A DNA stretch of 64,000 nucleotides from Minisyncoccota bacterium (GTDB lineage Bacteria; Patescibacteriota; Minisyncoccia; Phycocordibacterales; UBA5272). The position numbers and the translations under genes are program-made. The stretch is taken from assembly GCA_041651055.1 (NCBI GenBank), contig JBAZJW010000001.1:306661-370660 (forward strand), in the 5' to 3' direction. Positions 3,001 through 62,397 of this stretch are shown in pieces. Each line of letters starts with the position of its first letter. The stretch's first letter is position 1. Below the pieces are notes generated by a model, which ran no database searches, was not told the DNA's origin, and was given only the letters and a program-made list of their open reading frames with translations.

Positions 3001-6000
3001 GAGTGGTGTGGTGGTGCCGATACCGACGTTGCCTCTTGTACCACCAAGAATAATATTCCCTGATATGCCTGTTCCGTACCCAAGACCACCATCTAAAGTA
3101 ATATTGCCTCCACTCGCAAGACCTGCTGATCCAGATGAACCATTACCACCAGTGAGTGTAAGGATACCTCCTGTGATATTTGTTACGGCGTCCGGGGAAG
3201 CGTTACCACCGTGAAGGGTGAGTGAGGTCACTGCGTCTTGTCCACTTCCTAAGTTAGCTCCACGAACAGTCAATTTTGCAGAAGGCCCGTCGGTATCATT
3301 TCCAGAAATCACAGCATTAGCATAATAAGCTCGTATTGGTTTATAGAACTTAATTTGATTATCACCTGAACCAAAATTAATAACATTCCCATCTGTATTT
3401 GTAATCAATAGCCCATTCGTAGAAGAATTAAGTGCTCCCGGAATTGTTGGTCGCCCATCTTTTCTTACACTAAACTTACTAATTCCGCCAACCTGCAAAT
3501 CAACTAAATTAGAGGCAGTTAAACTGGCAGTATCTGTAATATTCATCGTAAGACCAGAAAAGGTTGATCCTGACTGGTTCCACGTCTGCACTAAATTCAC
3601 CAATGAACTTGTCGCAGTAACGGTTCCACCGTTAATAGAAAGTGAAGACGCAGGACTCGTGGTACCAATACCAACGTATCCATTATCAAGAACCGTAAGT
3701 CCTGGGATATTTGTACTTCCTGTTGTCTGGAACGCAATACCCGTGCCAGTGCCTGCACCTTTAACACCAAGACGTGCATATGGGGTAGAGGTACCGACAC
3801 CGAGATTGCCCGTACTAGTCACACGCATCGACTCTCGTGCGGTATAACCAACTTGTGATCTAAAGACCATGTCGCCACCAGACCAATAGTTATCAAAAAA
3901 AGTAGTGCCATTTGGCGCATCATAATAAAACTTAAATCCTTCATTAAAAGCGCCTCCACTAAAACCGTTTGATGAAGTAATACCGATAGAAGCAATATCG
4001 TTATTACCAAGACCTTTAAGCACAAGGCTTGGCGCACTTGAAGTAATCTGAAGATCAGCCCCGGGTGCTGTTGTACCAATCCCCACTCTCCCTCCCGCTG
4101 TCGCAAGATACGTACCACCTGTGACAGTGAGTCCTGTTGAGCTTGCGGTAGCGAGTGTACTCTGACCATTTACGTTAAAAGTTCCTGTGAATATTCCATT
4201 TGTTCCTGTGAAGCCTGTTGACGAAAGGTTCGTTGTAGACGCATTTGTAATCGTTGCATTTGTAGAAAAGAGTGATGCGAGGGTAGCTCCTGTTGCAGAG
4301 AGGTTTGTGGTAGATGCATTACCTAACGTAGTCTGACCAGAGATATTGAGTGTCCCTGTCGCAGTGACGTTACCCGCGAAGTATGAGTTGCCATTAACTG
4401 CGAACATTGCTGCGGGAGTGGTGGTGCCGATACCGACATACCCAGAAGTACCATTAATACGCATCGCTTCAGTACCATCAGCTTTGTTTATCATTGTGTT
4501 ACCTGTTGTTCCTAGGAACGTAGTGTCTGGTAATCCAGGTTCGAGAATCACATTTCCACCATTATATGCAGAACCTGATCTTGCAAGGTTATCCCCTCCT
4601 TTGACCAGTACGTGTCCGTTCGATTTATTTGTATATCCTGTAACCAAAAGAGCAGGATTATCATACCCTGCGGAAATAGAGCTCCCAGCAAAACCCTTTA
4701 CCGTTGCTGTATTTAACCACATAAAAGGGTTTGCTCCTCCGGCTGAAAAACCAAGAGTTCCAGCGTATCCGAAAAGCAAACTAACACTATTCCCAAGAAT
4801 ACTATTTGCACCAATATTAAGATTTCCATCTAACTTGGTATCACCAACAACATGAAGCTTTGAACTTGGTGTCGATGTTCCTATCCCCACATTCCCTCCC
4901 GCGGTTGCAAGTGTCGTCGTGCCTGTTGTATTGAAAAGCGTAGCGTAGAGGTTTGTTGCAGTGAATCCGGTTGAAGATGCGTTCGAGAGCGTGGTTTGAC
5001 CAGCGATGTTAAACGTGCCTGTTGCTGTCACATTACCCGCGAAGTATGAGTCTCCATTTACCGCGAACTTAGTGGTAGGAGAACTAGTGCCAATACCTAC
5101 ATTTCCTCTTGTTGTCGCAAGGAGAACGTTTCCTGCAATACCTGCATTCACAGGAGCTCCACCATCTAGGTAAATATTTCCACCATTTCTTGCTGTAGCA
5201 CCGGCATCCGATGAAGCACCACCGATGAGAAGCATATCTCTACCTGCCGCTGAATATGTTCCGTATTCACCAATACTCGTCGGACGAATAGTAAATGTTC
5301 CTGCAGTACTTCCAGCGCTTGGTCCTCCAGATAAAATAGAAGATCCTCCATTATTTATTTGAACGACTCCACTGGTACTATTTGGTGCAATACTAATATC
5401 TGTACCACTTCCACCTCCAAAACTCATTGTTCCACGCAAATCTCCTGTCGTCTGGTAGTAATCCTTAATCGAATTTCCGTTAATAGTAAGAAAATGATTT
5501 GACGGAGCCCCACTAAATGTAGCAATTCCTGCAGAACTTACTTTGAACATGCTAGATCCACCACTGTTTACATCGAACAATGCTGAAGGTGTAGATGTTC
5601 CCACTCCCACATTTCCTCCCGCAGTTGCAAGTGTCGTTGTACCTGTTGTATTGAAAAGCGTAGCGTAGAGGTTTGTTGCAGTGAGTCCTGTCGTTGATGC
5701 ATTCGTCAAAGTTGCAGACGTCGCAGACAAAGTGCCGACTGTCGCAGACGTGGAATATAAGTTCGTAAGTGTTGCTCCTGTTGCGCTTAAGTTCGTAGTT
5801 GACGCATTCGTAATCGTTGCATTTGTAGAGAAGAGTGATGCGAGTGTCGCTCCTGTTGCAGAAAGGTTTGTTGTAGAAGCGTTCGCAAGTGTCGTCTGAC
5901 CTGTTACGTTAAGTGTGCCTGTCGCTGTTACATTTCCTGCGAAGTATGAGTTACCGTTGACTGCGAACATCGCAGCAGGAGTAGTGGTACCGATGCCGAC

Positions 6001-9000
6001 ATTGCCACTATTTATAGACATCGTATTTATTAAACCAGTTGCAGAACCAGTATAGAAATCCATTCTTGCTGGACCTCCATTACCAGCAATTGCATTACCG
6101 TTTTGAACAACATCAATGACAGCTTGGTTATATAATGCCCCCGCCGTATTTACTCCAGAAAAACCAATCTGCCCTAAACCCTCTCCGTTTAAAGTTGTTG
6201 CTAAAGTTCCACTTACGTCTGAATGAGATTTTCCGAGAGTGATTCCTCCAGCCCCTTGCCAATTAGAATATGTACTAGAATAAGATATTGCTCGTAGTTG
6301 TGCAGAACTACCAGTAACACTACCAGTACCAGCTACATCTAGCTTAACACCAGGATTCGTTGTCCCGATGCCGACATTGCCTGTAAAATAGCTTCCATCT
6401 TTGTCTATGTACAGTTTTTCGGCGGCAGTATCATAACCACCCCCTCGTAAACTGATCGAACCCGTACTATTGCTAGCCGAAGCTGCATTTGAAAATACAA
6501 CAATACCATTTGCCCCATCGGGACCAAACGCAGCCTTGCTTGCTAGAGAGGCGACACCGAATGATGACCCGTATGCTCTAAAAAAACCGCCAACGGAACC
6601 ACTATAAGCCCCTACCGTTGCAGAATTTGAATTACTTGTACTATTAACTCGAATTGTACTATTAATCCCTGAACCATCGCCAGTGACTTCCAGTTTACCG
6701 TTTACTGGGTTTGTCGTTCCGATACCAACATTACCGTTGGAAATTATTCTCATCGCTTCAACACCATTGTTTGGAAAGAATCCAATTGAGGCACTAGCAC
6801 CGGCTCTGAGTTCCATAAGACTAGCGCTCATTCCAATACCATAATTATTTACTGGATTCCCATCGTTATACATGGTCCATTTGAGATTGGCAGGGCTTCC
6901 TGGAGTGCTATTGCCGTATGTACCTCCAAACGATACATTTAAAGGAGAAGCTGTGCTCTGACTAACATTTTTTCCAAAAATTGTATCTCCATTCGCAAGT
7001 ACATTAAATATCGGAGAGGTTGTCGAGTTGAAAGAAATAAACGGTGAAGCAAGTGATGTCGATGACGCCATGACGGAGAGCATTGCTATTGGAGAAGTCG
7101 TCCCCACTCCCACATTTCCATTCGAAGCAATAGTCATACGCTCGACACTCGATGTTACGAAGCGTAGATAATCATCCACACCTGCGGTGATGTATGTCGT
7201 CTGCGCTGGATTGATCACACCACCTAGACCTTGCCACACAGCATTGTCCCCGTATCCTTCGAACTGATGCGTAGTGACGTTGTAACGAACCTGTCCCGTG
7301 CCGGCTAATGATGGACGCTGTACCGTTGTACCTACAGGAAGACGAAGTGCATCGGTACCATAAATATCTACGATAGACGCAGGTGTCGCAGTCCCAATAC
7401 CGAGACGTGTGTTTGTATTATCCCAGAAGAAGTTCGCATTATTTTGTGAAAGCTTACCTCCTGTGCTGATGAATGGAATAGAGCCAGAGGTGAGTGCTGA
7501 GAAGTATGAGTCACCAGAGGTAGTAACATTCGTAGTGGATGCGTTGGTGGTCGTAAGACCACCAACGAACGCATTTGTAAGTGTCGCACCTGTCGCACTC
7601 AAGTTCGTAGTAGACGCATTTGTAATCGTTGCATTTGTAGAGAAGAGTGATGCGAGAGTGGCACCTGTTGCAGAGAGGTTCGTAGTAGACGCATTCGTAA
7701 ATGTCACATTCGTTGCAGTAAGTCCTCCGAAGAATCCATTCGTGAAGTTGAGCCCTGAACCAGAGATGTTCGTAGTAGAAGCATTTGTTACAGTAAGTGC
7801 TGAGAGGAATGCGTTTGTTGCAAAGAGTCCTGAAGCAGAGAGGTTCGTGGTGGATGCATTTAGGATTGTAGCTGTACCTGTAGTGTTCGTATTTCCGAAT
7901 ACTGCGCCAGTTGCACTGATGTTCGTTGTCGATGCATTTCCAAGTGTTGTCTGACCCGTAACTGTTAGATTAGAAATCGTTGTCGTTGCTAAAGTTGAAG
8001 TTCCTGTTACAGCAAGTAGCGTTGTGGTAGCGTTCGTAAGTGTTGCGTTTGTAGAGAACAGGGATGTAAGCGTAGCTCCTGTGGCTGAGAGATTCGTAGT
8101 CGATGCATTTCCAAGTGTGGTCTGACCGGTTACGTTAAGTGTACCGTTCGAAGCAAGAGATGATGTCGCGGTGATATTTCCAGCAGTGAAAGAGTTGAAG
8201 GTTGCAGTGATTGCATTTAATATCGTTGCGAAGAAGTTTGATGATGTCGCATTCACAAGTGTCGAACTTGCTGATGTAAAGCCAGTCGCTGAGAGGTTGG
8301 TCGTACTAGCATTCGTAATCGTTGCAGTACCTGTCGTGTTTGTATTTGTAAACGTTGCCCCTGTTGCGGAGAGGTTGGTCGTCGATGCACTTGTGGTGAT
8401 GAGCGAAGTAATAGAACCGTTTGTAGAAGAAATGTTTGTCGATGTAGAATATGTTGCGAGCAAATTCGTCGTATAGAGTGATGTCGCAGTCAGTCCTGTT
8501 GTCGATGCATTCGTAAGATTCGCAGCAATTGCATACAGTGTGTTTGCAGTAAGTGCTGATGATGATGCAGTGGAAAGTGTTGTCTGCCCCGTAACACCAA
8601 GTGTCCCCGTGAAGTTCGCAGCACTTGAAATAGTCTGTCCATTGATAAGGCCAGTAGTGAGGGCTCCAGATCCGAGATCAACAGCACCTACGAATGTGTT
8701 TGTCGCACCAAAAGTAAGACGAGTAGTCCCTGTGGAATCTTTGATAGCATTGCCATTTAATTGAAGCTTGTCATCTACGACAAGCGTATCGGTATTGATA
8801 TTGAAAATCGCATTCTGAATACCGAGAGATGCCTGAATCGTTGTATCACCTTCTGCATCCACTCGGAAACGCTCGACACCATTCACACCGACACCGAGAA
8901 GTGTACTGTTTGTGGAGCCTGACCCTGGATTAATATAAAGACTTCCTTGTCCGAGACCTGTACCGAGTGGTGTGCCAGTGAGTGTAAGCATCCCCGCAAT

Positions 9001-12000
9001 ACTTGATGTTGCAGTACCAGCGACGTTAATTGAATTCGCGAAATTAACTTTGAAGTTATTGAACTCAAACTGTGAAAGTGTAGAATTCCATTTAAGAACG
9101 GCGTTTGGTGTAGCAATACCTCGAGAAAATTCTAACGTTGAATCCTGTGTATCATTGGTGAAATTACCTGTATTAATAATAAAGGTTGATGACGCTGTAC
9201 CACCTGCCACAAGGTTCGAAATTGTCGTCGTTGCAGCATAAATATTTCCAAAACGGAAAGTCGGAGATCCGAGGTCTGCACCAAGGTCTGTTGAAGGCAA
9301 AATTGTCGAAGCGATTTTACCATTAATAGTCACCGTGTCAGCTGAGCTATCCCCCAAGATTGTATTACCATTTGTTGTGAGATTTCCAGAGAAAAGGTTC
9401 GTACCTGTTGTGTTCGTTGAATTAAATGTTCCGACAATTTGCACGTCGCCTTCTGCATCGATACGAGCCTTTTCAGCACCGGCAACCGAAAGACCGAGGA
9501 GAACATTGTTTGTTCCTGCTGATGTTGGATTGACATACACGGTCCCCTGATTGATTCCTGTTCCGAATGGCACAGCAAGGAACTGAATCTGACCATTTGT
9601 GATAGATGATGTGAGCGATCCTGCAACATTAAGAGACCCCCCAATGTACACATTACCAGATGTCTCAATAACACCAGGAGCTGTCGTAGCCACCCCGACA
9701 CCGAAGCCTCCAGAAATATATCCGTTCGTTGCTTTTATATCACTTGAAAAAAGATTTGTCGTCGTTGCATTACCTCCAACAAATGTATTGGTGTAAAGAT
9801 TCGTCGATGTCGCATTCGTAATGATCGCATTTGTTGTCGTGCTGTTACCAACGATGAGGTCTGTAATACGTGCAAGTGTGGACCAGAGGTTTGAGAAGAA
9901 GCCGTTGGTGGATGTGGCACTAGTTGCGGTGAAGCTTGTGGCTGTTGTTGTGGCGAAAGTTGAGGTGCCGACGACAACCACTTGTCCATTTACGTTAAGT
10001 GTTCCGCCTCCGATAACAAGTTTGTCGATGTATGCGTTTGTCGTTGTGGCGTTCGTTGTAGAAGCGTTCACGGCAACGAGATTTGTGGTCGTACCATTTG
10101 CTACCGTAAGGTTTGTCGTTGAGGCAGTACTAGCAGAGAGATTCGTCACAGTTGTGGTTGCAAGCGTTGATGTTCCAACGACGACCACTTGTCCATTTAC
10201 GTTAAGTGTTCCGCCACCAATGACGAGGTTATTGATATATGCGTTTGTTGTCGTGCTGTTCGTTACGATTGCATTTGTTGTTGTACTGTTTGTTACTTCG
10301 AGACCAACAATTGCAGCGAGCGCTGAAAAGAAATTAGTTGTTGTTGCGTTTGTTCCAAAAAGATTCGAAGCAAACAGATTCGTCGATGTCGCATTCGTAA
10401 TGATCGCATTTGTTGTCGTACTGTTACCAACGATGAGGTCTGTGATACGTGCAAGTGTGGACCAGAGGTTTGAGAAGAAGCCGTTGGTGGATGTGGCATT
10501 GTTTGCAGTGAAGCTTGTGGCTGTTGTGGTGGCAAAAGTTGAGGTGCCGACTACGACAAGCTCACCATTTACCGTCACATTACCATTTGATGTAGATGAT
10601 CCAACGACAAGGTTCTGAACATATGCGTTCGTCGTTGTACTGTTCGTCACGATCGCATTTGTGGTCGTTGAATTTCCGATGATGAGGTCAGTTATATTTG
10701 CGAGCGTGGACCAAAGATTTGCAAAGAAACCATTGGTGGATGTCGCGTTTGTTGTAATACTATTTGTTGCAAAAAAATTAGTACTTGAGGCGTTCGTTGT
10801 GGATGCGTTTGTCGCTGCAAGATTTGTGGTTGTAGCACTTGTCGCAATAAGGTTTGTTGTTGTTGCAACGTCGGCAGTAAAGCTTGTCACCGTCGTAGTG
10901 GCAAGCGTTGAAGATCCATATACAACAAGCCCACCATTTACCGTCACATTACCGTTTGATGTCGATGAACCATTTGTAATATATGACCCAACGACAAGAT
11001 TTTGTATGAAGGCATTTGTTGCGGTTGCATTGTCCACCAAGAATCTTGTAGCCGAAACATCTGTGAGAGTAGAGCTTGCAGCGGAAAGATTGGTGATATA
11101 TGCATTTGTTGTCGTGCTGTTTCCAAATGTAGAAGAGCTTGCCGTGAGTGTGTTCGCCGAAACTCCTGCACTAAATGATGCTGACCCTGTAAAGACGTTA
11201 GAACCACTGAATGCCACACCATTTAAGGTTGCATTCGCAAGGTACATATTTGACGATGTGCCATAGTTGAAATTCGCATATTCGATTGTCGTATCGCGAA
11301 GGTATCCAATAGTTGAAACACCGATGAGGCTCTGTGCGAAATATGGCGTCGATGATTGATTAACTGTGGTAGGCGTGATGAATCCACCGAACGATGTTGG
11401 TAAAGAAGGATTTGAAGCACTCTGTCCATCACGACCATCTCGCCCGTTTGCTCCAGCAGGACCGGCAACCGGCACATACTCAGTAATATACTTCGTGAGA
11501 TATATAGGTGAAGCGGCGGGAGTTGTTTTTATGGTAGCTGATGTAACAGATGAAGAAGGAGTGCTTACAGTAGGTGTAGTGACGGCCGGAGCGACTGCGA
11601 CAGTGTTTGTTGTGTTCGTAGATGGAGAAAGCAGTCCTGATGCAAGAATGGTGTAATTACAGCGCTTCTGATCAAGAGTTGATGAAAGAGAGGAAAGTTT
11701 ACAGTAGAGAGAGAGTGAGAGTTGGTCAAGGAAAGGGAGGTTTTTCTTTTGCTGCGCAAGACCACTTGGAGTTTGTGAGGTAAAGGCACCAAGCACTACA
11801 CCTTGATTCTGCGCATGTGGCAGCAATTCAATTTGTGCAAGACGTGGAAGATGAGTGTTCACACTTGATGCATATGTTGCCACTGTTTCTTTACTAAAGA
11901 TTTCTCCATGAAGCGTACCTACGATGTACGAAGTGAGTGTATGCACAAATGGAAGAGCGAGAGGAGTTCCAGCAACACCAACCTCACGAGGAGTCGCACC

Positions 12001-12432
12001 TGAGATAACGAGCTTATTTTCTGAAATAGGAGAAAGGGTTATTGAGTTGAGTGCTTTCGTATAAGTCACCTCCATAGCCAAAACAATGTTTTGTAGAGAA
12101 GATGGTGTAAATGAAAGATTCGGTACGTTTATTTTTTGAATAGCCAGAGGTTCGCTGTAGGCAATCTTTGGGATCGTTGCGAGAGATTGTGAGGCAAGTA
12201 ATTTTGGAAGTGTGTGTGCAAAAGAAAATGAAGTGTGTGCAAGTTTCGAAACAGTAAACGGTCGAGAACGAAGTGTAAGGATAAGTGATGAAAGAGGTCT
12301 TGCTTGTGAAAATGTGTATTGTGTGTCCTTTGTGTCAGCTGCTTTTGCAGGAGAAAAAGAGACGAAGAAGAAAGCGAGAGAGAGTACTGCGAAGACAAGT
12401 TTTTGGAATGTGCGACTACTAAGATCTTGCAT
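1..12432 (-). CDS. Giant secreted repeat protein (tail-fibre-like, beta-helical adhesin-like). It is 5' complete and 3' truncated by the window edge, with at least 4,144 aa in the window.
   Basis: The minus-strand ATG at 12432 (the revcomp of cat 12430-12432) opens MQDLSSRTFQKLVFAVLSLAFFFVSFSPAKA/ADTKDT, a signal peptide. The frame was hand-translated at 12432, 11475, 8709, 4440 and 1371 (all codon tops are congruent to 0 mod 3) with no stops. The track lists no complete ORF starting at 12432, which implies there is no in-frame stop before position 1. Recurrent motifs include YVGIGTTTP (4440-4418) and GNVGIGSSTPSFKLSVGG (1371-1320). There are long T/N/S/A 9-residue periodic repeats and a collagen-like GPAGANGRDGRDGQ stretch (11475-11434). 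Confidence 0.8.
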   Translation of the reverse strand, partial: MQDLSSRTFQKLVFAVLSLAFFFVSFSPAKAADTKDTQYTFSQARPLSSLILTLRSRPFTVSKLAHTSFSFAHTLPKLLASQSLATIPKIAYSEPLAIQKINVPNLSFTPSSLQNIVLAMEVTYTKALNSITLSPISENKLVISGATPREVGVAGTPLALPFVHTLTSYIVGTLHGEIFSKETVATYASSVNTHLPRLAQIELLPHAQNQGVVLGAFTSQTPSGLAQQKKNLPFLDQLSLSLYCKLSSLSSTLDQKRCNYTILASGLLSPSTNTTNTVAVAPAVTTPTVSTPSSSVTSATIKTTPAASPIYLTKYITEYVPVAGPAGANGRDGRDGQSASNPSLPTSFGGFITPTTVNQSSTPYFAQSLIGVSTIGYLRDTTIEYANFNYGTSSNMYLANATLNGVAFSGSNVFTGSASFSAGVSANTLTASSSTFGNSTTTNAYITNLSAASSTLTDVSATRFLVDNATATNAFIQNLVVGSYITNGSSTSNGNVTVNGGLVVYGSSTLATTTVTSFTADVATTTNLIATSATTTNLAATNASTTNASSTNFFATNSITTNATSTNGFFANLWSTLANITDLIIGNSTTTNAIVTNSTTTNAYVQNLVVGSSTSNGNVTVNGELVVVGTSTFATTTATSFTANNATSTNGFFSNLWSTLARITDLIVGNSTTTNAIITNATSTNLFASNLFGTNATTTNFFSALAAIVGLEVTNSTTTNAIVTNSTTTNAYINNLVIGGGTLNVNGQVVVVGTSTLATTTVTNLSASTASTTNLTVANGTTTNLVAVNASTTNATTTNAYIDKLVIGGGTLNVNGQVVVVGTSTFATTTATSFTATSATSTNGFFSNLWSTLARITDLIVGNSTTTNAIITNATSTNLYTNTFVGGNATTTNLFSSDIKATNGYISGGFGVGVATTAPGVIETSGNVYIGGSLNVAGSLTSSITNGQIQFLAVPFGTGINQGTVYVNPTSAGTNNVLLGLSVAGAEKARIDAEGDVQIVGTFNSTNTTGTNLFSGNLTTNGNTILGDSSADTVTINGKIASTILPSTDLGADLGSPTFRFGNIYAATTTISNLVAGGTASSTFIINTGNFTNDTQDSTLEFSRGIATPNAVLKWNSTLSQFEFNNFKVNFANSINVAGTATSSIAGMLTLTGTPLGTGLGQGSLYINPGSGSTNSTLLGVGVNGVERFRVDAEGDTTIQASLGIQNAIFNINTDTLVVDDKLQLNGNAIKDSTGTTRLTFGATNTFVGAVDLGSGALTTGLINGQTISSAANFTGTLGVTGQTTLSTASSSALTANTLYAIAANLTNASTTGLTATSLYTTNLLATYSTSTNISSTNGSITSLITTSASTTNLSATGATFTNTNTTGTATITNASTTNLSATGFTSASSTLVNATSSNFFATILNAITATFNSFTAGNITATSSLASNGTLNVTGQTTLGNASTTNLSATGATLTSLFSTNATLTNATTTLLAVTGTSTLATTTISNLTVTGQTTLGNASTTNISATGAVFGNTNTTGTATILNASTTNLSASGLFATNAFLSALTVTNASTTNISGSGLNFTNGFFGGLTATNVTFTNASTTNLSATGATLASLFSTNATITNASTTNLSATGATLTNAFVGGLTTTNASTTNVTTSGDSYFSALTSGSIPFISTGGKLSQNNANFFWDNTNTRLGIGTATPASIVDIYGTDALRLPVGTTVQRPSLAGTGQVRYNVTTHQFEGYGDNAVWQGLGGVINPAQTTYITAGVDDYLRFVTSSVERMTIASNGNVGVGTTSPIAMLSVMASSTSLASPFISFNSTTSPIFNVLANGDTIFGKNVSQSTASPLNVSFGGTYGNSTPGSPANLKWTMYNDGNPVNNYGIGMSASLMELRAGASASIGFFPNNGVEAMRIISNGNVGIGTTNPVNGKLEVTGDGSGINSTIRVNSTSNSNSATVGAYSGSVGGFFRAYGSSFGVASLASKAAFGPDGANGIVVFSNAASASNSTGSISLRGGGYDTAAEKLYIDKDGSYFTGNVGIGTTNPGVKLDVAGTGSVTGSSAQLRAISYSSTYSNWQGAGGITLGKSHSDVSGTLATTLNGEGLGQIGFSGVNTAGALYNQAVIDVVQNGNAIAGNGGPARMDFYTGSATGLINTMSINSGNVGIGTTTPAAMFAVNGNSYFAGNVTATGTLNVTGQTTLANASTTNLSATGATLASLFSTNATITNASTTNLSATGATLTNLYSTSATVGTLSATSATLTNASTTGLTATNLYATLFNTTGTTTLATAGGNVGVGTSTPSALFDVNSGGSSMFKVSSAGIATFSGAPSNHFLTINGNSIKDYYQTTGDLRGTMSFGGGSGTDISIAPNSTSGVVQINNGGSSILSGGPSAGSTAGTFTIRPTSIGEYGTYSAAGRDMLLIGGASSDAGATARNGGNIYLDGGAPVNAGIAGNVLLATTRGNVGIGTSSPTTKFAVNGDSYFAGNVTATGTFNIAGQTTLSNASSTGFTATNLYATLFNTTGTTTLATAGGNVGIGTSTPSSKLHVVGDTKLDGNLNIGANSILGNSVSLLFGYAGTLGFSAGGANPFMWLNTATVKGFAGSSISAGYDNPALLVTGYTNKSNGHVLVKGGDNLARSGSAYNGGNVILEPGLPDTTFLGTTGNTMINKADGTEAMRINGTSGYVGIGTTTPAAMFAVNGNSYFAGNVTATGTLNISGQTTLGNASTTNLSATGATLASLFSTNATITNASTTNLSSTGFTGTNGIFTGTFNVNGQSTLATASSTGLTVTGGTYLATAGGRVGIGTTAPGADLQITSSAPSLVLKGLGNNDIASIGITSSNGFSGGAFNEGFKFYYDAPNGTTFFDNYWSGGDMVFRSQVGYTARESMRVTSTGNLGVGTSTPYARLGVKGAGTGTGIAFQTTGSTNIPGLTVLDNGYVGIGTTSPASSLSINGGTVTATSSLVNLVQTWNQSGSTFSGLTMNITDTASLTASNLVDLQVGGISKFSVRKDGRPTIPGALNSSTNGLLITNTDGNVINFGSGDNQIKFYKPIRAYYANAVISGNDTDGPSAKLTVRGANLGSGQDAVTSLTLHGGNASPDAVTNITGGILTLTGGNGSSGSAGLASGGNITLDGGLGYGTGISGNIILGGTRGNVGIGTTTPLSLLSVSSSTATGTSNLFSIATSTSIFNVLANGNVGIGSSTPGYALDVFGTVRAGTTTGKVLLMSDASAAAIGGAGTASIVVGNSKIRDNQYGIDIYPSTSQTGALRVTNESLMGGTGNGITFQALTGNSTGNVVLEGYNANDTGIASYHNILFGINRIEKARFDINGNLGLGTTTFTAKLAVNGDSYFAGNVTATGTVNAPSSLFTNSTSTNLNLSGWFRDSTNATGTSGQALVSTGTSTLWSTIVAGSGVTNAYASSTFMTLVTDFSTHNLTATGTLNVTGDATLALASSTALTVTGQTILASAGGYVGIGTTSPVSPLSVNGGTVTATSSLVNLAQTWNQSGSTMSGLTMNITDTASLAASNLVDLQVGGVSKFSVRKDGAMTVPTGSISSPSSLIISGGPHYITGIANAYTGFFGDDGAGVKGKLLVWKYSNISVPSNYSYSWSSGLDAVSTPDLFLSRKAAANLQLGGADAASPVAQTFSVQSVVAGTTNTAGTSTTFKASAGTGTGLGGAFIFQTAAASSTSGTFQNAFNTAMTILGNGNVGIGSSTPSFKLSVGGDIVASGSGGSLKIDISGASASGTIQPSINSLRFLNSASNAWIKTTSLSHGVAALGVLSWSPDTNPENSDTGFSRISAGVLGLGNGSQGSITGTLIAGNIGIGTTTPTTSLFVQGVGGTNPFNIASSTGSSLMMMNQLGALLFGTTTYAGQAGEVYANLFTAASSTATSTFAGNVNIGSGGLFYNASTSVTSISNLELGNLSFDTDAGIVQWTDLPILNAATGTVESYSAAIAGTSVLTVYGESNGYAAVQYPRVGINMATPLSVLDAYSATSTSNVDIFRLLSDVGGASNVKFRIDSDGDVFTDGGTTIGTPADLAENYPALEAVDAGTVVAFGTSTVAWGQISNTSTTTEMYDISGVRKALTDYEAIGVISTKAGITLGGDTRDGVPVAFSGRIPVKVTTENGEVKRGDFLTVSKTMPGYAMKMTGEGRALGRAISDF
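9797..10590. repeat. Near-identical ~200-bp direct repeats inside the giant gene, with units starting at 9797 and 10377 (period about 579 bp). A ~50-bp sub-repeat is duplicated at 9965 and 10172, and a diverged third copy lies near 10661.
   Basis: Direct comparison of 9797-10010 with 10377-10590 shows only a few mismatches. Antisense ORF 9821..10618 contains MIAFVVVLLPTMRSVIRASVDQRFEKKPLVDVAL twice and VPTTTTCPFTLSVPPP twice. Confidence 0.8.
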
Positions 12433-12436
12433 GTAG

Positions 12437-12721
12437 ATTGATACTTATTAGTATAGTAAAAGTGGTGTATAAGTACAGCACAAAGTGGTACTTATCTGTG
12501 GATAAAGTACAAATTAAAATCCCTTATTCTAAAACGTTAAAATAGAAAATTTGCAGGTAAAATTTTTACTTGATAATTAAAAATTTTTAGTGAAATATAA
12601 GTCCTCTATTTCAACACACTTTTAGTAATGATAAAAGCAAAAATTAACCATTTCTTCTACACATTATGTAGGTCTTAGGGTTTTTAATTAAAAATTATCT
12701 ATAAGGGTTCTCCTTATAGAT
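12437..12721 (-). promoter_or_regulatory. AT-rich upstream region of the giant gene, the presumed promoter and leader.
   Basis: This is 285 bp of A/T-rich non-coding sequence between the rnhB stop and the giant-gene ATG, both on the minus strand. No specific boxes were assigned. Confidence 0.3.
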
Positions 12722-57255: not shown

Positions 57256-58221
57256 TCATTTGAGGTACGTCGCAAAAAAATCCTCCATCTTCTGATCCGT
57301 AAAATCATTCACACGCTTAACCACATCCATAGTGTGAGGCCATAAAGGAAGCCGGTAATAGGTCACAGGTACGCCCAAGGTATGAAGATATGCTTTCAAT
57401 ACATCTGATTGACTAAGAGGAACAAGCTCGTCAGATGTCCCATGAAAAATAAGTGTTGGGGGATCTTTTGAATCAAGGTATGTTATTGGTGAAGCCTCTT
57501 TGTAAAGTTCTGGAGAATCTTCGTATGGGTGACCAATGAACGACGTTACGAGCGAGTGATTTCTCATATAGCCTGTTGTGAGATCTGTCGGCCCATATAA
57601 ATCGACAACAGCTTTTATTGGATGAGAGACAGAACCGCCCCATCCATATGCCGCAAGAAGCGCGAGATGTGCTCCCGCTGAACCTCCGATAATTGCGATA
57701 TTATTTTTATCATACCCATACGTCTCACTGTGTGAAGACAGCCATGTCACTGCATCGTTAACATCTTCAATAGCTGCGGGATACGGAGTGTCAGCATCTA
57801 GTCTATACGAAATGGTCGCCGTGATATATCCTTTCTTGGCGAACGAAAGAAGGTACACCAAATAGTCCGATCTTTTGCCGCCACTCCATCCACCACCATG
57901 AACAAAAATCAAAAGCGGTGCCAGCTTGATGCTCTTTTTTTGTGGAATATACATGTCGAGCTGTAGCGACTGACCATTCACATTTTTATATTCAATATTC
58001 TTTATCTCCTTAATATCTGCGGGAATCTCTGGCGTTTTGTTTATTAAGGTTTCTAGTCCTACATCAATCGCCAGATATAATGGTGTGACAAAATGGTACC
58101 CAAGCGGAGGATCGTGAGGATGTAGAGCAGACCATGCTCGCGGAATAACCATCAGGAAGCAAATCAAGACAAGCACACATAACAAACCAAGAATGGTTCG
58201 TTTGAAAAGTTTTGATTTCAT
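57256..58221 (-). CDS. Secreted/membrane-anchored alpha/beta hydrolase (esterase/lipase family).
   Basis: It has an HGGGW oxyanion motif (IFVHGGGWSGG), a GGSAGAHLA nucleophile elbow and an N-terminal TM/signal region. Confidence 0.75.
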   Translation of the reverse strand: MKSKLFKRTILGLLCVLVLICFLMVIPRAWSALHPHDPPLGYHFVTPLYLAIDVGLETLINKTPEIPADIKEIKNIEYKNVNGQSLQLDMYIPQKKSIKLAPLLIFVHGGGWSGGKRSDYLVYLLSFAKKGYITATISYRLDADTPYPAAIEDVNDAVTWLSSHSETYGYDKNNIAIIGGSAGAHLALLAAYGWGGSVSHPIKAVVDLYGPTDLTTGYMRNHSLVTSFIGHPYEDSPELYKEASPITYLDSKDPPTLIFHGTSDELVPLSQSDVLKAYLHTLGVPVTYYRLPLWPHTMDVVKRVNDFTDQKMEDFFATYLK

Positions 58222-58279: not shown

Positions 58280-58534
58280 CTAGTACACGAAAAATCCTCC
58301 GAAAATACTATTGATAAGTGGAATAATTCCACCAACAGAAAATACAATAAATAATCCGATAAGTCCCCAGAACAAATGACTCTTACCATCATTCTTTTTC
58401 GTAGGATCATTCATATCGTAGATGAACTTCGCAGCACCATAGAGAAAGTATATAAAAGCACAGACAATAACAATTTGATACAGTGGCTGTACGAAGCCAA
58501 TGACGATATTTCTAAAAAGAGTTTCTCCGTTCAT
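58280..58534 (-). CDS. Small 2-TM protein, a VirB2/TrbC-like T4SS-pilin-type module (84 aa).
   Basis: It has two TM helices separated by a charged loop (DMNDPTKKNDGKSH) and shares the 2-TM module with the four downstream paralogues. Confidence 0.55.
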   Translation of the reverse strand: MNGETLFRNIVIGFVQPLYQIVIVCAFIYFLYGAAKFIYDMNDPTKKNDGKSHLFWGLIGLFIVFSVGGIIPLINSIFGGFFVY

Positions 58535-58544
58535 GGATATGAGT

Positions 58545-58744
58545 ATACCGCGTGCGACCCTAAATACAAACTTGTAAGTTTGTATTTAGGGTCGCACGAG
58601 TCGAAAGTCCGTAAAGTTTGTAAAGTCAAAAGGAAATACGGGTTCGTAATTTACTTTATGGACTTTTTACTTTATGGACTTTATAGACTAAAGTTTTTAT
58701 ACAAAAAATCCTGACATATAGTCAGGATTTTTTATATAAAAACT
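58545..58744. repeat. Hairpin- and repeat-dense intergenic block. It contains the perfect palindrome gtgcgaccctaaatacaaacttg/caagtttgtatttagggtcgcac, copies F1 (58602-58633, reverse) and F2 (58651-58690, forward) of the ACTTT-phased element, and the perfect hairpin aaaaaatcctgacata/tagtcaggatttttt.
   Basis: The palindromes were read directly from the sequence. Confidence 0.7.
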
Positions 58745-59308
58745 TTAGCAGGAGGTCTCCCCTGGCAAGCATGTCTTCGGTGCCATCCCTCCTTGATTGA
58801 TACCAAGAACAGATCCAGCAAACCCAATGATTCCCCACACAGATACCATTACGAAAAGTGCGAGCACGGAATACGCCATCCCTCTTAATGACTTCTGCTG
58901 CTCATCTGCACTATTTCTTCCTTTCCAAATGAATTCAATGAGAAACCAAAAGAATGCAAGCATCGCCATCCCAACCAAAAACGGAGCGAGGCGCTTTATG
59001 ATAAGTTGCGCAAGAGCAAGTAGACCAAGAACTCCGTTTGATCCACTCGTACCGCCGACATTTAACGTACCGTTGCCCACAGTAATAGGTACGCCACCTA
59101 TCGTCCCTCCTATTTGATACCCTCCTGTGTTTGCGTTATAGATGAGGCCCCCTCCATTTCCATTACTTACTTGTATGACACCTGTCTGGCCATTAACACC
59201 AACAGGAAGACCGTTTAAGGTGCCGTTCACTTGACCCACCTGAATCTGAGCAGATGTTAACGTACAGCTACTAAGGATGAGCACTGCACCAAGTAATAAT
59301 TTTTTCAT
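58745..59308 (-). CDS. Secreted pilin-like protein. It has a signal peptide, a Gly/Asn-rich region and a C-terminal VirB2/TrbC-like 2-TM module.
   Basis: The signal peptide is MKKLLLGAVLILSSCTLTSA. The module LLALAQLIIKRLAPFLVGMAMLAFFWFLIEFIW...SLRGMAYSVLALFVMVSVWGIIGFAGSVLGINQGG is nearly identical to that in 59440..59838. Confidence 0.6.
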   Translation of the reverse strand: MKKLLLGAVLILSSCTLTSAQIQVGQVNGTLNGLPVGVNGQTGVIQVSNGNGGGLIYNANTGGYQIGGTIGGVPITVGNGTLNVGGTSGSNGVLGLLALAQLIIKRLAPFLVGMAMLAFFWFLIEFIWKGRNSADEQQKSLRGMAYSVLALFVMVSVWGIIGFAGSVLGINQGGMAPKTCLPGETSC

Positions 59309-59373
59309 ATAGTAAAAGTATACCATAGGGTAGTTTTTAGTTTTTAGTTTTTAGTAGATGCAAATACATCAAT

Positions 59374-59431
59374 GCTTTATTTTTACATAAACAAAAAACC
59401 AAGTCGTACGACTTGGTTTTTTGTTTATGTA
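59374..59431. terminator. Long perfect palindrome, a terminator for the pilin-like gene 59440..59838.
   Basis: The palindrome is ttttacataaacaaaaaaccaagtcgta/tacgacttggttttttgtttatgtaaaa. Confidence 0.65.
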
Positions 59432-59439
59432 AAAAGCGT

Positions 59440-59838
59440 TTACGCTGCTGGAACCGGAACACCAGGAATCGGAACTGATCCACCTTGATTGATACCTACG
59501 AGTGACCCGAAGAATCCTACCAACCCCCAGATAGAAACCATTACGAAAAGTGCGAGCACAGAGTATGCCATTCCTCTGAGAGAGGTTGATTTGTTCTCAG
59601 CACTGTCAGCACCCAACCAAATGTACTTGATAAGGTACCAAAAGAATGCAAGAACAGCGAGACCTACAGCAAAAGGAACGAGACGTGTGACGATAGTCTG
59701 CGCAAGTGCAAGAAGAGAAAGAAGAGCACCTCCGTTCACAGCTCCTTGCTGTACTGAGTTACCGATAGTAATTGTTTGTGCAGATGCTGACATGATACTG
59801 CCAGCTGCGAGTGTGAATAATGTTAGTGCTTTTTTCAT
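59440..59838 (-). CDS. Secreted pilin-like protein with a signal peptide and a VirB2/TrbC-like 2-TM module (132 aa).
   Basis: The signal peptide is MKKALTLFTLAAGSIMSASA. The conserved module is LLSLLALAQTIVTRLVPFAVGLAVLAFFWYLIKYIW...SLRGMAYSVLALFVMVSIWGLVGFFGSLVGINQGG. Confidence 0.6.
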   Translation of the reverse strand: MKKALTLFTLAAGSIMSASAQTITIGNSVQQGAVNGGALLSLLALAQTIVTRLVPFAVGLAVLAFFWYLIKYIWLGADSAENKSTSLRGMAYSVLALFVMVSIWGLVGFFGSLVGINQGGSVPIPGVPVPAA

Positions 59839-59936
59839 ATGTTTTTATGTGTGTATGTTAAGTATAGCGTTCTTGTGATTCTTTGCAAGAATAGCTGGGG
59901 ATAGTAATGGTTAAGCAAACAAAGTAAGTCAATACT

Positions 59937-61163
59937 CTATATCATAATAATAGAAGGGTCAAGATAAACTCCATCTGTGGCTGGAGGTGTGGTTCCTCCT
60001 GCAGAAGTGTCTGCTGCAGGGTCAGAAACAGAAGAATTTATCTCTTGCATTTGCGCAGCTTCAGTCACACAGGTTCCATTTGAACCTACAACCATACCAA
60101 AATCACAACTAGCAGAAAAATCAGAAGAAGGGAGTGTTGGCCCTACTGTACCTGATGCAGGAGGTGTTACTCCTGTTGAAGCGGCACAAAGATCTTCCAG
60201 GCCGGGATTATTGGTTACACATTGAGCATATGTAACGGTTGCTGGTCCATTTCCAGTCATTGCAGCTTGAGCGGCTGTCTGACACGTGGCCATGTCCCCT
60301 CCTGTATTTGTCATGCAGTTTGTGTACACCGTATTAGTTAAATTTTCCTGAGCAGAGCCTATTCCTCCATAGGCTGCATATGCAGTCTGACACTCTGCGG
60401 AAGAGTTACCATTTGTGAGACATGAATTATAGGCCTGACTGGCTAGATTCTGTGCAGCAGAGCCCGTTCCTCCGGCCGATTGATACGCACTTTGACAGGA
60501 GGCATCTGTACCATTATTTCCAATACACGTATTATACGCAGATTGAGCTGCTGAAACAGTACCTCCGGCAGCAGGTACTACGGAAGAAGTTCCACCTGCG
60601 CAATTTTGCGAGACACATCTTCCTCCTGTGCCACATGTAGAGCCGTCAGCTTTTCCAGTACAAGCATTTGTTCCAGCCGCACTAGGGTTAACAAGAGCTC
60701 CTCCACTCGGAGCAATACCAGAACTTGCACCTCCGAAATCAAACGAAGGGATTTTGATTGTCGTCACATCAGAACCGCTAAAAAGAATTCCTTGTCCGAA
60801 TTTAATAATTCCATATACCGAGAACATGACAAAAAGTGCGAGCAATCCCCACCCCATGAATTGATTTCCAATTTTTACTTTATCAGCCTTTCCTTCACGT
60901 GCACCCCAAATGTACTGAACGATACCGAAGAAAAATACCACCAGTGCTGCTGCGAGAAGAAGTGTTCCCACAGCTTTCACCACCGTCGTCGTAAAGAGTG
61001 TAACAAGAACCGCGAATGTTCCGATACCTGTTGCGATATTTGTCACTGCGGCAGGAGTGGCTGCGGCGGCGCCAGTAACGTCCCCTGCGGCGGCAAAAAC
61101 AACAGATGGCACAGCTACTAAAAGAACACTAATAAGTACACGTGGGCTGAGAAGTTTTTTCAT
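59937..61163 (-). CDS. Pilin-like protein with a signal peptide, an N-proximal 2-TM module and a 280-aa Cys-rich repeat ectodomain.
   Basis: It has four repeats of about 30 aa with paired Cys (AQSAYNTCIGNNGTDASCQSAYQSAGGTGSA...). The module is LLLAAALVVFFFGIVQYIW...GWGLLALFVMFSVYGIIKFG. Confidence 0.55.
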   Translation of the reverse strand: MKKLLSPRVLISVLLVAVPSVVFAAAGDVTGAAAATPAAVTNIATGIGTFAVLVTLFTTTVVKAVGTLLLAAALVVFFFGIVQYIWGAREGKADKVKIGNQFMGWGLLALFVMFSVYGIIKFGQGILFSGSDVTTIKIPSFDFGGASSGIAPSGGALVNPSAAGTNACTGKADGSTCGTGGRCVSQNCAGGTSSVVPAAGGTVSAAQSAYNTCIGNNGTDASCQSAYQSAGGTGSAAQNLASQAYNSCLTNGNSSAECQTAYAAYGGIGSAQENLTNTVYTNCMTNTGGDMATCQTAAQAAMTGNGPATVTYAQCVTNNPGLEDLCAASTGVTPPASGTVGPTLPSSDFSASCDFGMVVGSNGTCVTEAAQMQEINSSVSDPAADTSAGGTTPPATDGVYLDPSIIMI

Positions 61164-61233
61164 AAATGTAATATCTATAAGTGTATACCATACTTCCTGT
61201 GCCGACTAGGGAGTTGTTCAGTATTTAAAAAAA

Positions 61234-62397
61234 CTAATTTGTGCAGGCACTGTTCGCATCTGGTGTGCCATCTCTCGTTATGTTATTTACTACATCAAAA
61301 CATCTTTGTTGAACAGTACTACGAGGGGTGGTTGAAGCAGTCGCTGGATTCACTGTGGCTGGTGTAACAACAACTGTTGGTGAACCTCCACTACTTTGAG
61401 GAGTAATAACAAAGTCTGCCTGAGAAGAAGAGCTCGGAACAGATGCTGTCGGAGTAACAGTTAAGGGAGCAACATATGAATCACTTCTACTCACACAACT
61501 TCCATCCAACCCTCTTTGTCCAGATAGTCCATTTTGTGTAGTACATACGGAGTTAGTGGTTCCTGCTGCAGGAACCACACGCCCATCTGGATTAATAGAT
61601 GTAGTAGAAGAGCCTACTGGTGCAGTAACAGTGCTAGCACTAGGCATGGTAGACGCCGGTGTAGTAACCGTAGAACTTCCAATAACTTGCAATGCGGTAT
61701 TTCTCACTGCGAAAACAAATCCTTGCACCATCACTACCGCAATTGTAATAATCGCTGCCAACAACGTGTACGAGTGCGCCTTTTTAAGTTCTTCAGGTTT
61801 ACCTTGCGCGTACACATATGCGAATCCTGAAAAAAGCCACATGCCGACAATGGATGGATATACGAACCACCTAATAATTATCCTGGCGAGACTAAGCAAT
61901 ACATCATAGAGATTATTCATTGTCGTAGGGTTCGGCAACAATGATCCGGTATCTGCATACGCGTGGGTAACAAATGCTTCAGAAAATAATTTTAAAATAA
62001 AATCTTGTACGCCAAATGATTTCAAAATAAAGGTAAGGGCTCCGGCGGCAATAGCGAAGACAACCACAAAACCAATAAGTGACTGAAAGGCTTCGTACCC
62101 TACTTTCTTAAGAGCCGCACCGCTAGGATCTTTACGAGCCCACACTATCATCACCATACGAACAACAAGAACAAGAACAACGAAAACTGATCCTATAACC
62201 GTGAAGAGTGAGAGCAGGCTCGAAACCATTGCTTTGAAGTTAGTAACATTACATTCTGTCTGTGCTGTCGCTCCACAGAGATCATTCCCAGAAATAGACT
62301 TCGTAGGATATGCAGATGTCTGTGCATACAGAGGTACAAAAGAAATTACTATGAAAAATGATGCGAGCAATGCAGTGAGGATGTATTTATTTTTCAT
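61234..62397 (-). CDS. Secreted membrane protein with two tandem 2-TM pilin-like modules (4 TM in all) and an S/T/P-rich C-terminal tail.
   Basis: It has a signal peptide plus four hydrophobic helices, then a TTPASTMPSASTVTAP...VVVTPATVNPATASTTP low-complexity tail with Cys pairs. Confidence 0.5.
   Translation of the reverse strand: MKNKYILTALLASFFIVISFVPLYAQTSAYPTKSISGNDLCGATAQTECNVTNFKAMVSSLLSLFTVIGSVFVVLVLVVRMVMIVWARKDPSGAALKKVGYEAFQSLIGFVVVFAIAAGALTFILKSFGVQDFILKLFSEAFVTHAYADTGSLLPNPTTMNNLYDVLLSLARIIIRWFVYPSIVGMWLFSGFAYVYAQGKPEELKKAHSYTLLAAIITIAVVMVQGFVFAVRNTALQVIGSSTVTTPASTMPSASTVTAPVGSSTTSINPDGRVVPAAGTTNSVCTTQNGLSGQRGLDGSCVSRSDSYVAPLTVTPTASVPSSSSQADFVITPQSSGGSPTVVVTPATVNPATASTTPRSTVQQRCFDVVNNITRDGTPDANSACTN

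Follow-up and report, generated by a model that had tools for sequence, protein, structure and literature searches.

A conserved array of PF18895-family pilin-like genes in a housekeeping block of a Paceibacteria-type chromosome

Patescibacteria, or candidate phyla radiation (CPR) bacteria, account for a large part of the bacterial diversity not yet in culture and are believed to live attached to the cells of hosts. In the sole Patescibacteria species tested genetically, a type IV secretion system (T4SS) and its pilin array are essential, and what the pilins build is an open question (PMC12857230). Wang et al. (2023) described six pilins of the Pfam family PF18895 (SEML1_0014-0019) in the essential T4SS cluster of Southlakia epibionticum ML1, a Saccharibacterium (PMC10633639), and Quinonero-Coronel et al. 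(2025) counted 441 "VirB2 arrays" of 2 to 11 genes in 383 Patescibacteria assemblies and suggested that the arrays have a role in adapting to host strains (PMC12102498). A 2025 review called a pilus an "intriguing possibility" (PMC12857230). In this report we describe five tandem genes, named P1 to P5, that very probably form an array of this family in a stretch of 64,000 nucleotides, here called the window, from a Minisyncoccota bacterium (GenBank assembly GCA_041651055.1, contig JBAZJW010000001.1, positions 306,661 to 370,660). The kind of system is already published, and its product is still unobserved.

The five minus-strand open reading frames (ORFs) that a first-pass annotation of the window had read as pilin-type genes are all present with the same ends (Table 1), and P1 to P5 occur verbatim in an NCBI metagenome-assembled genome (MAG) of Candidatus Paceibacterota, on a 775-kb contig (559 kb in an ENA assembly). 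All five are annotated there as "hypothetical protein." The order of transcription is P5 first and P1 last.

The first-pass annotation had also proposed a shared module of two transmembrane (TM) helices, and profile comparisons bear this out. P1 matched PF18895 (T4SS_pilin) at 30.0 bits (E = 5.4e-7, profile positions 12 to 68 of 71), above the gathering cut-off of 26.6 bits; P3 (25.4 bits) and P2 (19.0 bits) fell under it, and P4 and P5 themselves gave no match. Homologs of the P3, P4, and P5 types scored 29.1 bits (P0022), 28.7 bits (P0143), and 35.5 bits (P0123), respectively, all passing the cut-off. Within the array, P2 and P3 are 58% identical over 108 amino acids (aa); the core of their modules, which had been called nearly identical, agrees at 41 of 58 positions (71%). 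The pairs P2-P4, P3-P4, and P1-P4 are 28 to 33% identical. With hhalign, the P3 family matched the P4 family at a probability of 99.2% (E = 2e-19), and P1 matched the P4 family at 97.6%. P5 is the member whose own similarity is weak, and its placement rests on three observations: an orthologue that is 50% identical to it, P0123, matches PF18895 in two stretches, as the doubled module read in the first pass would have it; a three-sequence P5 alignment matched the P4 family at 91.6%; and BLASTP recovered P5-type doubled modules at 36 related loci. Among 72,556 plasmids, P1 has a single relative, a "pilin-like conjugal transfer protein" of Pontibacillus (32% identity), whose gene lies 4 kb upstream of one for a VirB4-like ATPase of the CD1110 family. 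Taking these results together, we are confident that the five genes form a pilin-like array of the PF18895 family.

P2 to P5 begin with MKK or MKN followed by a hydrophobic, signal-peptide-like stretch, and P1 has none, in agreement with the four signal peptides noted earlier. The stretch ends in A-Q in P2, P3, and P5 and in AAA-G in P4; within the P3 family, A20 never varies and Q21 hardly does. AlphaFold models of P3 and P4 have a signal-peptide helix and then a helical hairpin (helices 37-75 and 80-114 in P3, helices 50-90 and 93-127 in P4), with values of the predicted local distance difference test (pLDDT) of 80 to 93 in the hairpins. Two hydrophobic segments were also evident from hydropathy, and the helices are joined by short loops containing Lys or Arg. 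The cysteines of P2, P4, and P5 are even in number and lie outside the TM helices, the exception being Cys15 inside the P2 signal peptide, and all of the cysteine pairs are in segments predicted to be outside the cell. These features fit a predicted hairpin with both ends outside the membrane (N-out/C-out), and two such hairpins in P5.

We note that a signal peptide with A-x-A at its end and Gln after it, and a Gly-Gly just past helix 2, are common to P3-type proteins and genuine VirB2/TrbC proteins; P3 has an invariant QGG and then a Pro-rich tail. As a likeness of motif, the positions of the P3-type Gln and QGG parallel the processing sites of the T-pilin and of RP4 TrbC.

The segments joined to the module differ from one protein to the next, and the Gly/Asn-rich segment, the four Cys repeats, and the Ser/Thr/Pro (S/T/P)-rich tail listed in the first pass were all recovered. 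P2 has a Gly/Asn-rich stretch with 21 G and 10 N in 70 aa, and some P3-family members elsewhere share its G-rich insert and C-terminal Cys pair. The P4 ectodomain runs from a disordered linker through a four-cysteine cluster to four Y-x-x-C-x(9-10)-C repeats, at residues 210, 245, 280, and 312 (a period of 32 to 35 residues), which AlphaFold models as four helix-turn-helix units with pLDDT values of 86 to 96; this Cys-repeat domain had no match in the PDB. An exhaustive search of 1.84 billion representative proteins found the P4 ectodomain in 13, all 13 with a pilin module, and in one of these the Cys-repeat domain is N-terminal to the module. Its fusion at the N or the C terminus fits a topology in which both module ends are on the same side of the membrane. 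S/T/P residues make up 44% of the P5 tail. Among the arrays of related loci, BLASTP found no counterpart of the P5 tail and, except for a single match, none of the P4 ectodomain; in relatives, a C-terminal PF18895 module is joined to IPT/TIG domains.

A scan with a P3 alignment, taking one genome per GTDB species, found 78 loci, in MAGs labeled Paceibacterota, Parcubacteria, Nomurabacteria, Kaiserbacteria, Adlerbacteria, and similar. Array members were counted in 85 sources (84 fetched loci and the window) with a family hidden Markov model (HMM) built from 272 module sequences. Co-directional arrays of 2 to 8 module genes (median, 4) are present in 84 of the 85; their ORFs are 70 to 502 aa long, 71 of 368 being at least 200 aa, and doubled modules recur. 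BLASTP matched some array member in 82 loci. Across the 14 closest related loci that were tabulated, identities to the window proteins are 49 to 64% for P1, 52 to 76% for P3, 42 to 66% for the P4 module, and 29 to 44% for the P5 modules. P3 is the most conserved member, with 346 homologs, the best 120 of which are about 56 to 81% identical to it. Since the modules are conserved as types across related loci, the array is a set of old, distinct orthologous types and not the outcome of recent duplication. The P1, P3, P4, and P5 types are conserved across dozens of species, with only the outer domains hypervariable. The term "paralogue diversification" used in the first pass is therefore misleading.

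The array lies in a conserved block that comprises genes for a Lactamase_B_3 protein, gyrA, a methyltransferase, and a protein like the solute-binding protein (SBP) family SBP_bac_1, then the array, and often glyS.

Our best explanation, which on balance we think probable as a whole, is that the locus is a VirB2-like PF18895 array whose products form a T4SS-assembled, pilus-like structure for host contact. Each product would enter the cytoplasmic membrane, four of them by a Sec signal peptide that probably ends in A-x-A before Q, and would sit there as a hairpin of two TM helices with a short, charged cytoplasmic loop and both ends outward. The P3 type is the likely major structural subunit, with P2 as its paralog; the P4 and P5 types, carrying hypervariable and presumably disulfide-bonded outer domains, are probably minor, adhesive, or host-recognition subunits; and P1 would be the minimal module without a signal peptide. 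By analogy with the S. epibionticum array, the subunits would presumably be extracted by a monoderm-type T4SS (VirB4/VirB6) whose genes lie elsewhere in the genome and then built into a pilus-like surface structure for contact with the host cell. As the first-pass annotation did for its "surface filament," we infer the topology in vivo, the polymerization, the T4SS dependence, and the host-contact role. For assembly into a T4SS-dependent pilus, considered as a claim of its own, we would put the chance at a little short of even.

Several results weigh against this explanation. As had been noted earlier for VirB4, VirB6, and VirD4, none of the VirB4, VirD4, VirB6, and PrgI families was found among window ORFs of at least about 170 aa, and the same holds for ORFs up to 10 kb from the 78 related arrays, where the large Walker-A proteins are only IF2, ClpB, FtsH, UvrA, and helicases. 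In seven relatives, the next 10 kb upstream contained no T4SS gene either, and no ORF there exceeds about 480 aa; in locus L094, the sole relative in which that stretch was scanned with Pfam, it encodes TrxB, FtsZ, FtsA, YbeY, HisRS, signal peptidase I, Pth, and an S1 protein. With no T4SS gene near this array or those of its relatives, homology is the only tie to a T4SS. Of the 1948 assemblies with both genes, the published survey placed the pilin gene close to virB4 in 1135, and the present MAG is not among the entries of its supplement (PMC12102498). The tie to VirB2 itself is also indirect. None of the five proteins matched PF04956 (TrbC/VirB2) at E ≤ 10, and the 272-sequence module profile matched nine genuine VirB2/TrbC proteins, a narrow and purely alphaproteobacterial set from conjugative plasmids, with an hhalign probability of 1.6%. 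The first-pass assignment to VirB2/TrbC-type pilins thus stands by way of PF18895 and not by way of PF04956. Because direct PF04956 membership failed here, the bridge to VirB2 is a published one: PF04956 is also matched by two of the six PF18895 pilins of S. epibionticum (PMC10633639). P5 scored 2.3 bits against the family HMM, which is not significant, and had no Pfam match at E ≤ 10 that counted for the module. The P3-family profile, compared with all PDB sequences, found no pilin, just chance matches resembling G-protein-coupled receptors, and fold searches returned generic helical hairpins alone. A tightly packed VirB2-type filament would not easily accommodate ectodomains of about 150 aa (the P5 tail) to about 280 aa (P4), and no Patescibacteria T4SS pilin has yet been shown to form a pilus (PMC12857230).

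In the main rival explanation, the hairpin is merely a membrane anchor, the variable ectodomains of P4 and P5 are displayed, P1 to P3 pack the membrane, and neither a pilus nor a T4SS is needed. The lack of T4SS genes near the array, in the window and in related loci alike, is consistent with an anchor, as are the position of the array within a housekeeping block from gyrA to glyS, the fusion of large ectodomains at either module end, and the generic fold of the hairpin. However, members of the family sit inside T4SS clusters and are essential there, the four or five distinct conserved module types, including the very short P1 and P3, which have no ectodomain, exceed the needs of an anchor, and the identities of its best 120 homologs make P3 extremely conserved for one. 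We regard the anchor as unlikely, although it deserves to be kept in mind.

The Paceibacteria set of five types, placed in a housekeeping block, away from T4SS genes and behind an orphan SBP-like gene, might instead make up a T4SS-independent appendage or envelope scaffold. This would be a heteropolymer with a body of the P3 type, on which P4- and P5-type subunits display hypervariable, disulfide-stapled ectodomains to recognize hosts or capture nutrients; it seems to us a rather long shot.

The SBP-like gene raises one more alternative, that its membrane-anchored product and the array form a single surface complex, for example for capture or uptake of host sugars, with the pilin-like proteins as its membrane or extracellular part. 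A homolog of this gene lies directly upstream of the array, on the same strand, in 63 of 79 non-redundant related loci, with a median gap of -10 bp (Table 1 gives the gap in the window), and in locus L003 a pilin gene precedes it, so that the SBP-like gene is inside the array. It has no ABC (ATP-binding cassette) permease or ATPase partner nearby, and comparison with the PDB gave weak matches to sugar SBPs. The gene is possibly co-transcribed with the array. In the 14 closest loci the protein is 58 to 66% identical to that of the window. The SBP-like family is very divergent, one member having no Pfam match at 1e-5; gyrA (57 loci) and the methyltransferase gene (59 loci) are kept almost as often, and no precedent for such a complex is known to us. 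The adjacency could therefore reflect functional linkage or plain synteny, and we consider a joint complex improbable. Finally, the idea that these are holins or other small membrane proteins with a merely compositional match to the pilin family is effectively refuted. A bias toward TM residues can inflate similarity scores, and P5 does have a very weak match to Phage_holin_3_6 (E = 2.1), the only holin match and far from the holin placement that the first-pass annotation had named as a danger to its reading. Against this idea, P1, P0022, P0143, and P0123 are above the curated PF18895 cut-off, signal peptides and extracytoplasmic Cys pairs are present, the neighbors are housekeeping genes with no phage context, and orthologs are conserved across dozens of species.

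Table 1. Features of the array and its immediate surroundings, in window coordinates
Feature	Position	Strand	Description
SBP_bac_1-like membrane-anchored protein, 432-440 aa	62451..63773	-	PF01547, 61 bits; 53 bp upstream of P5
P5, 387 aa, WC444_01950	61234..62397	-	Signal peptide, Cys pair, two divergent pilin modules, S/T/P-rich tail
P5 pilin modules	62008-62247, 61681-61929		
P5 tail	61237-61677		Two Cys pairs
P4 TATAC(T/A) box	61182-61187		Consensus match only
P4, 408 aa, WC444_01945	59937..61163	-	Signal peptide, pilin module, disordered linker, Cys repeats, tail
P4 pilin module	60768-61034		Residues 44-132
P4 Cys-stapled helix-turn-helix repeats	60174-60551		Four repeats; residues 205-330
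P3 promoter-like site	59861..59888	-	TTGCAA, 16 nt, TATACT; consensus match only
P3, 132 aa, WC444_01940	59440..59838	-	Signal peptide and pilin module
Intrinsic terminator after P3	59380..59435	-	Perfect 28-nt arms and T-run
P2 TATAC(T/A) box	59317-59322		Consensus match only
P2, 187 aa, WC444_01935	58745..59308	-	Signal peptide, Gly/Asn-rich segment, pilin module, C-terminal Cys pair
P2 Gly/Asn-rich segment	59036-59245		
Intrinsic terminator after P2	58688..58748	-	28-nt arms, 96% complementary, T-run
Perfect 23-bp palindrome	58551..58598	.	Abuts the P1 -10-like box on its upstream side; without T-run
P1 TATAC(T/A) box	58542-58547		Consensus match only
P1, 84 aa, WC444_01930	58280..58534	-	Minimal pilin module without signal peptide; last array gene

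The signals for expression vary along the array. Each gene had been credited with a strong palindromic terminator, but only P3 and P2 have a long hairpin followed by a T-run; no long hairpin follows P4 or P5, and after P1 there is just a 5-bp stem. A strict terminator scan of the relatives, in which 24 of 80 last (P1-type) genes, 14 of 88 P3-type genes, and no more than 7% of the other types were positive, rules out a terminator per gene as a general rule. In the window, P3 has both a promoter-like box and a strong terminator of its own. The palindrome upstream of P1 is not a standard terminator because it has no T-run; it could be an operator or a 5' RNA hairpin. Just upstream of it is a tandem direct repeat, AAGTCCATAAAGTAAA twice, at 58650-58690. 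We also tried TGGTATAC as an array-specific motif and rejected it, as its four copies in the window, against 1.3 expected, are not significant alone.

The A/U-rich leaders described in the first pass were overstated, as the distance from the TATAC(T/A) box to the ATG is 7 to 22 nt in P1 to P4, and P5, which starts 53 bp past the SBP-like gene, has no such box. No Shine-Dalgarno-like motif is visible by eye in the P1 to P4 leaders, no scan having been run. P2 has an alternative start at 59326, which gives the 193-aa protein called by JGI, compared to the 187 aa called by NCBI. In this region of the two P2 starts (window 59308-59326), the upstream ATG overlaps the TGGTATACT -10-like box; should the box be a genuine promoter element, the mRNA for the 187-aa P2 would be nearly leaderless, and that for P1 likewise. 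High expression of the array is plausible by analogy, as T4SS-pilin genes ranked, in Patescibacteria enrichment cultures, with the most highly expressed genes whose function is unknown (PMC10936435).

The surroundings are those of an ordinary Patescibacteria/CPR chromosome, with genes for DNA polymerase III alpha, ribonucleotide reductase, UvrABC, a split transketolase, GlyRS, and a DUF5667 protein. In Pfam, DUF5667 and PF18895 are neighboring accessions, from a batch of families that we take to have been built largely from CPR genomes. The ENA and Logan gene calls miss P1 and have an antisense ORF of 112 aa at 58376-58714 (+), and NCBI and JGI call P1; the antisense call is almost certainly spurious, because P1 matches PF18895 and has orthologs. 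Between P1 and glyS, at 57256-58221 (-), lies a gene for a BD-FAE/alpha-beta hydrolase (esterase) that has no counterpart at that position in any related locus examined and is thus a lineage-specific insertion.

A giant ORF (1-12444, -) continues beyond the left end of the window, encodes 4148 aa or more, and is presumably the "giant adhesin-like gene" next to which the first-pass annotation had placed the array; it lies 46 kb away, and a Pfam search of it found no family at E ≤ 0.001, so that an adhesin identity was not recovered. About 2 to 7 kb past the right end of the window there are a gene for an AIPR (abortive-infection) protein, between gyrA and the methyltransferase gene (L001 6223-7836), and, before gyrA, a gene for a four-helix-bundle protein resembling 23S_rRNA_IVP/bAvd (L001 2782-3147). 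Both are absent at those positions in three relatives. No reverse transcriptase was seen near the bAvd-like gene, and a diversity-generating retroelement is therefore not indicated.

Of the described systems, the TrbC/VirB2 pilins of diderm bacteria (PF04956; Agrobacterium VirB2 and RP4 TrbC) resemble the array products in their signal peptide ending in A-x-A before Q, two hydrophobic helices, short charged loop, Gly-rich end past helix 2, and small size. They differ in showing no detectable sequence or profile similarity to the products of this array, whose host is monoderm, and the genes described here are not beside virB1, virB3, or virB4; three of the five proteins have long extra segments. 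A second likeness is to the Mbov_0395-family proteins (NCBIfam NF045849) of integrative and conjugative elements and plasmids in Mollicutes and Firmicutes, which P1 matches over its whole length at 29.7 bits and P3 and P2 match at 16.2 and 15.8 bits, all below the cut-off of 40 bits. Those proteins, however, are encoded by single genes in the T4SS operons of mobile elements and not by chromosomal arrays.

The closest systems are the PF18895 arrays of other Patescibacteria. They share with this one the family, the tandem co-directional genes for divergent small proteins that combine a signal peptide with a two-helix hairpin, and a chromosomal location in a CPR bacterium without a relaxase context. 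Within-array identities in the published set have a mean of 25% and a maximum of 54% (PMC12102498), compared to 28 to 58% here. In the cited array papers we found no description of the Paceibacteria-type arrangement away from T4SS genes or of a stable set of orthologous types, nor of a doubled module or of ectodomain fusions, including the rare Cys-stapled repeat. The module has repeatedly been fused, at either end, to hypervariable ectodomains (the Cys-stapled helical repeat, IPT/TIG domains, and S/T/P-rich tails), which makes the P4 and P5 types candidate host-recognition determinants; imaging or antibodies would best be directed at the P3 type.

The known picture of Patescibacteria pilin arrays is not changed in kind by these results. 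The surveyed arrays are mainly from Microgenomatia and Saccharimonadia, whereas the present one belongs to a Paceibacteria-type lineage; and whereas a T4SS cluster encloses the S. epibionticum array, the present array and its counterparts at the 78 related loci are in a block of gyrA, the SBP-like gene, the array, and glyS, with no T4SS gene within 10 to 20 kb. The genes of a pilin array can lie far from any T4SS gene. The Paceibacteria-type array is also a stable set of distinct subunit types, not of recent variable copies, and here these conserved orthologous types include two with large hypervariable ectodomains and one with a doubled module.

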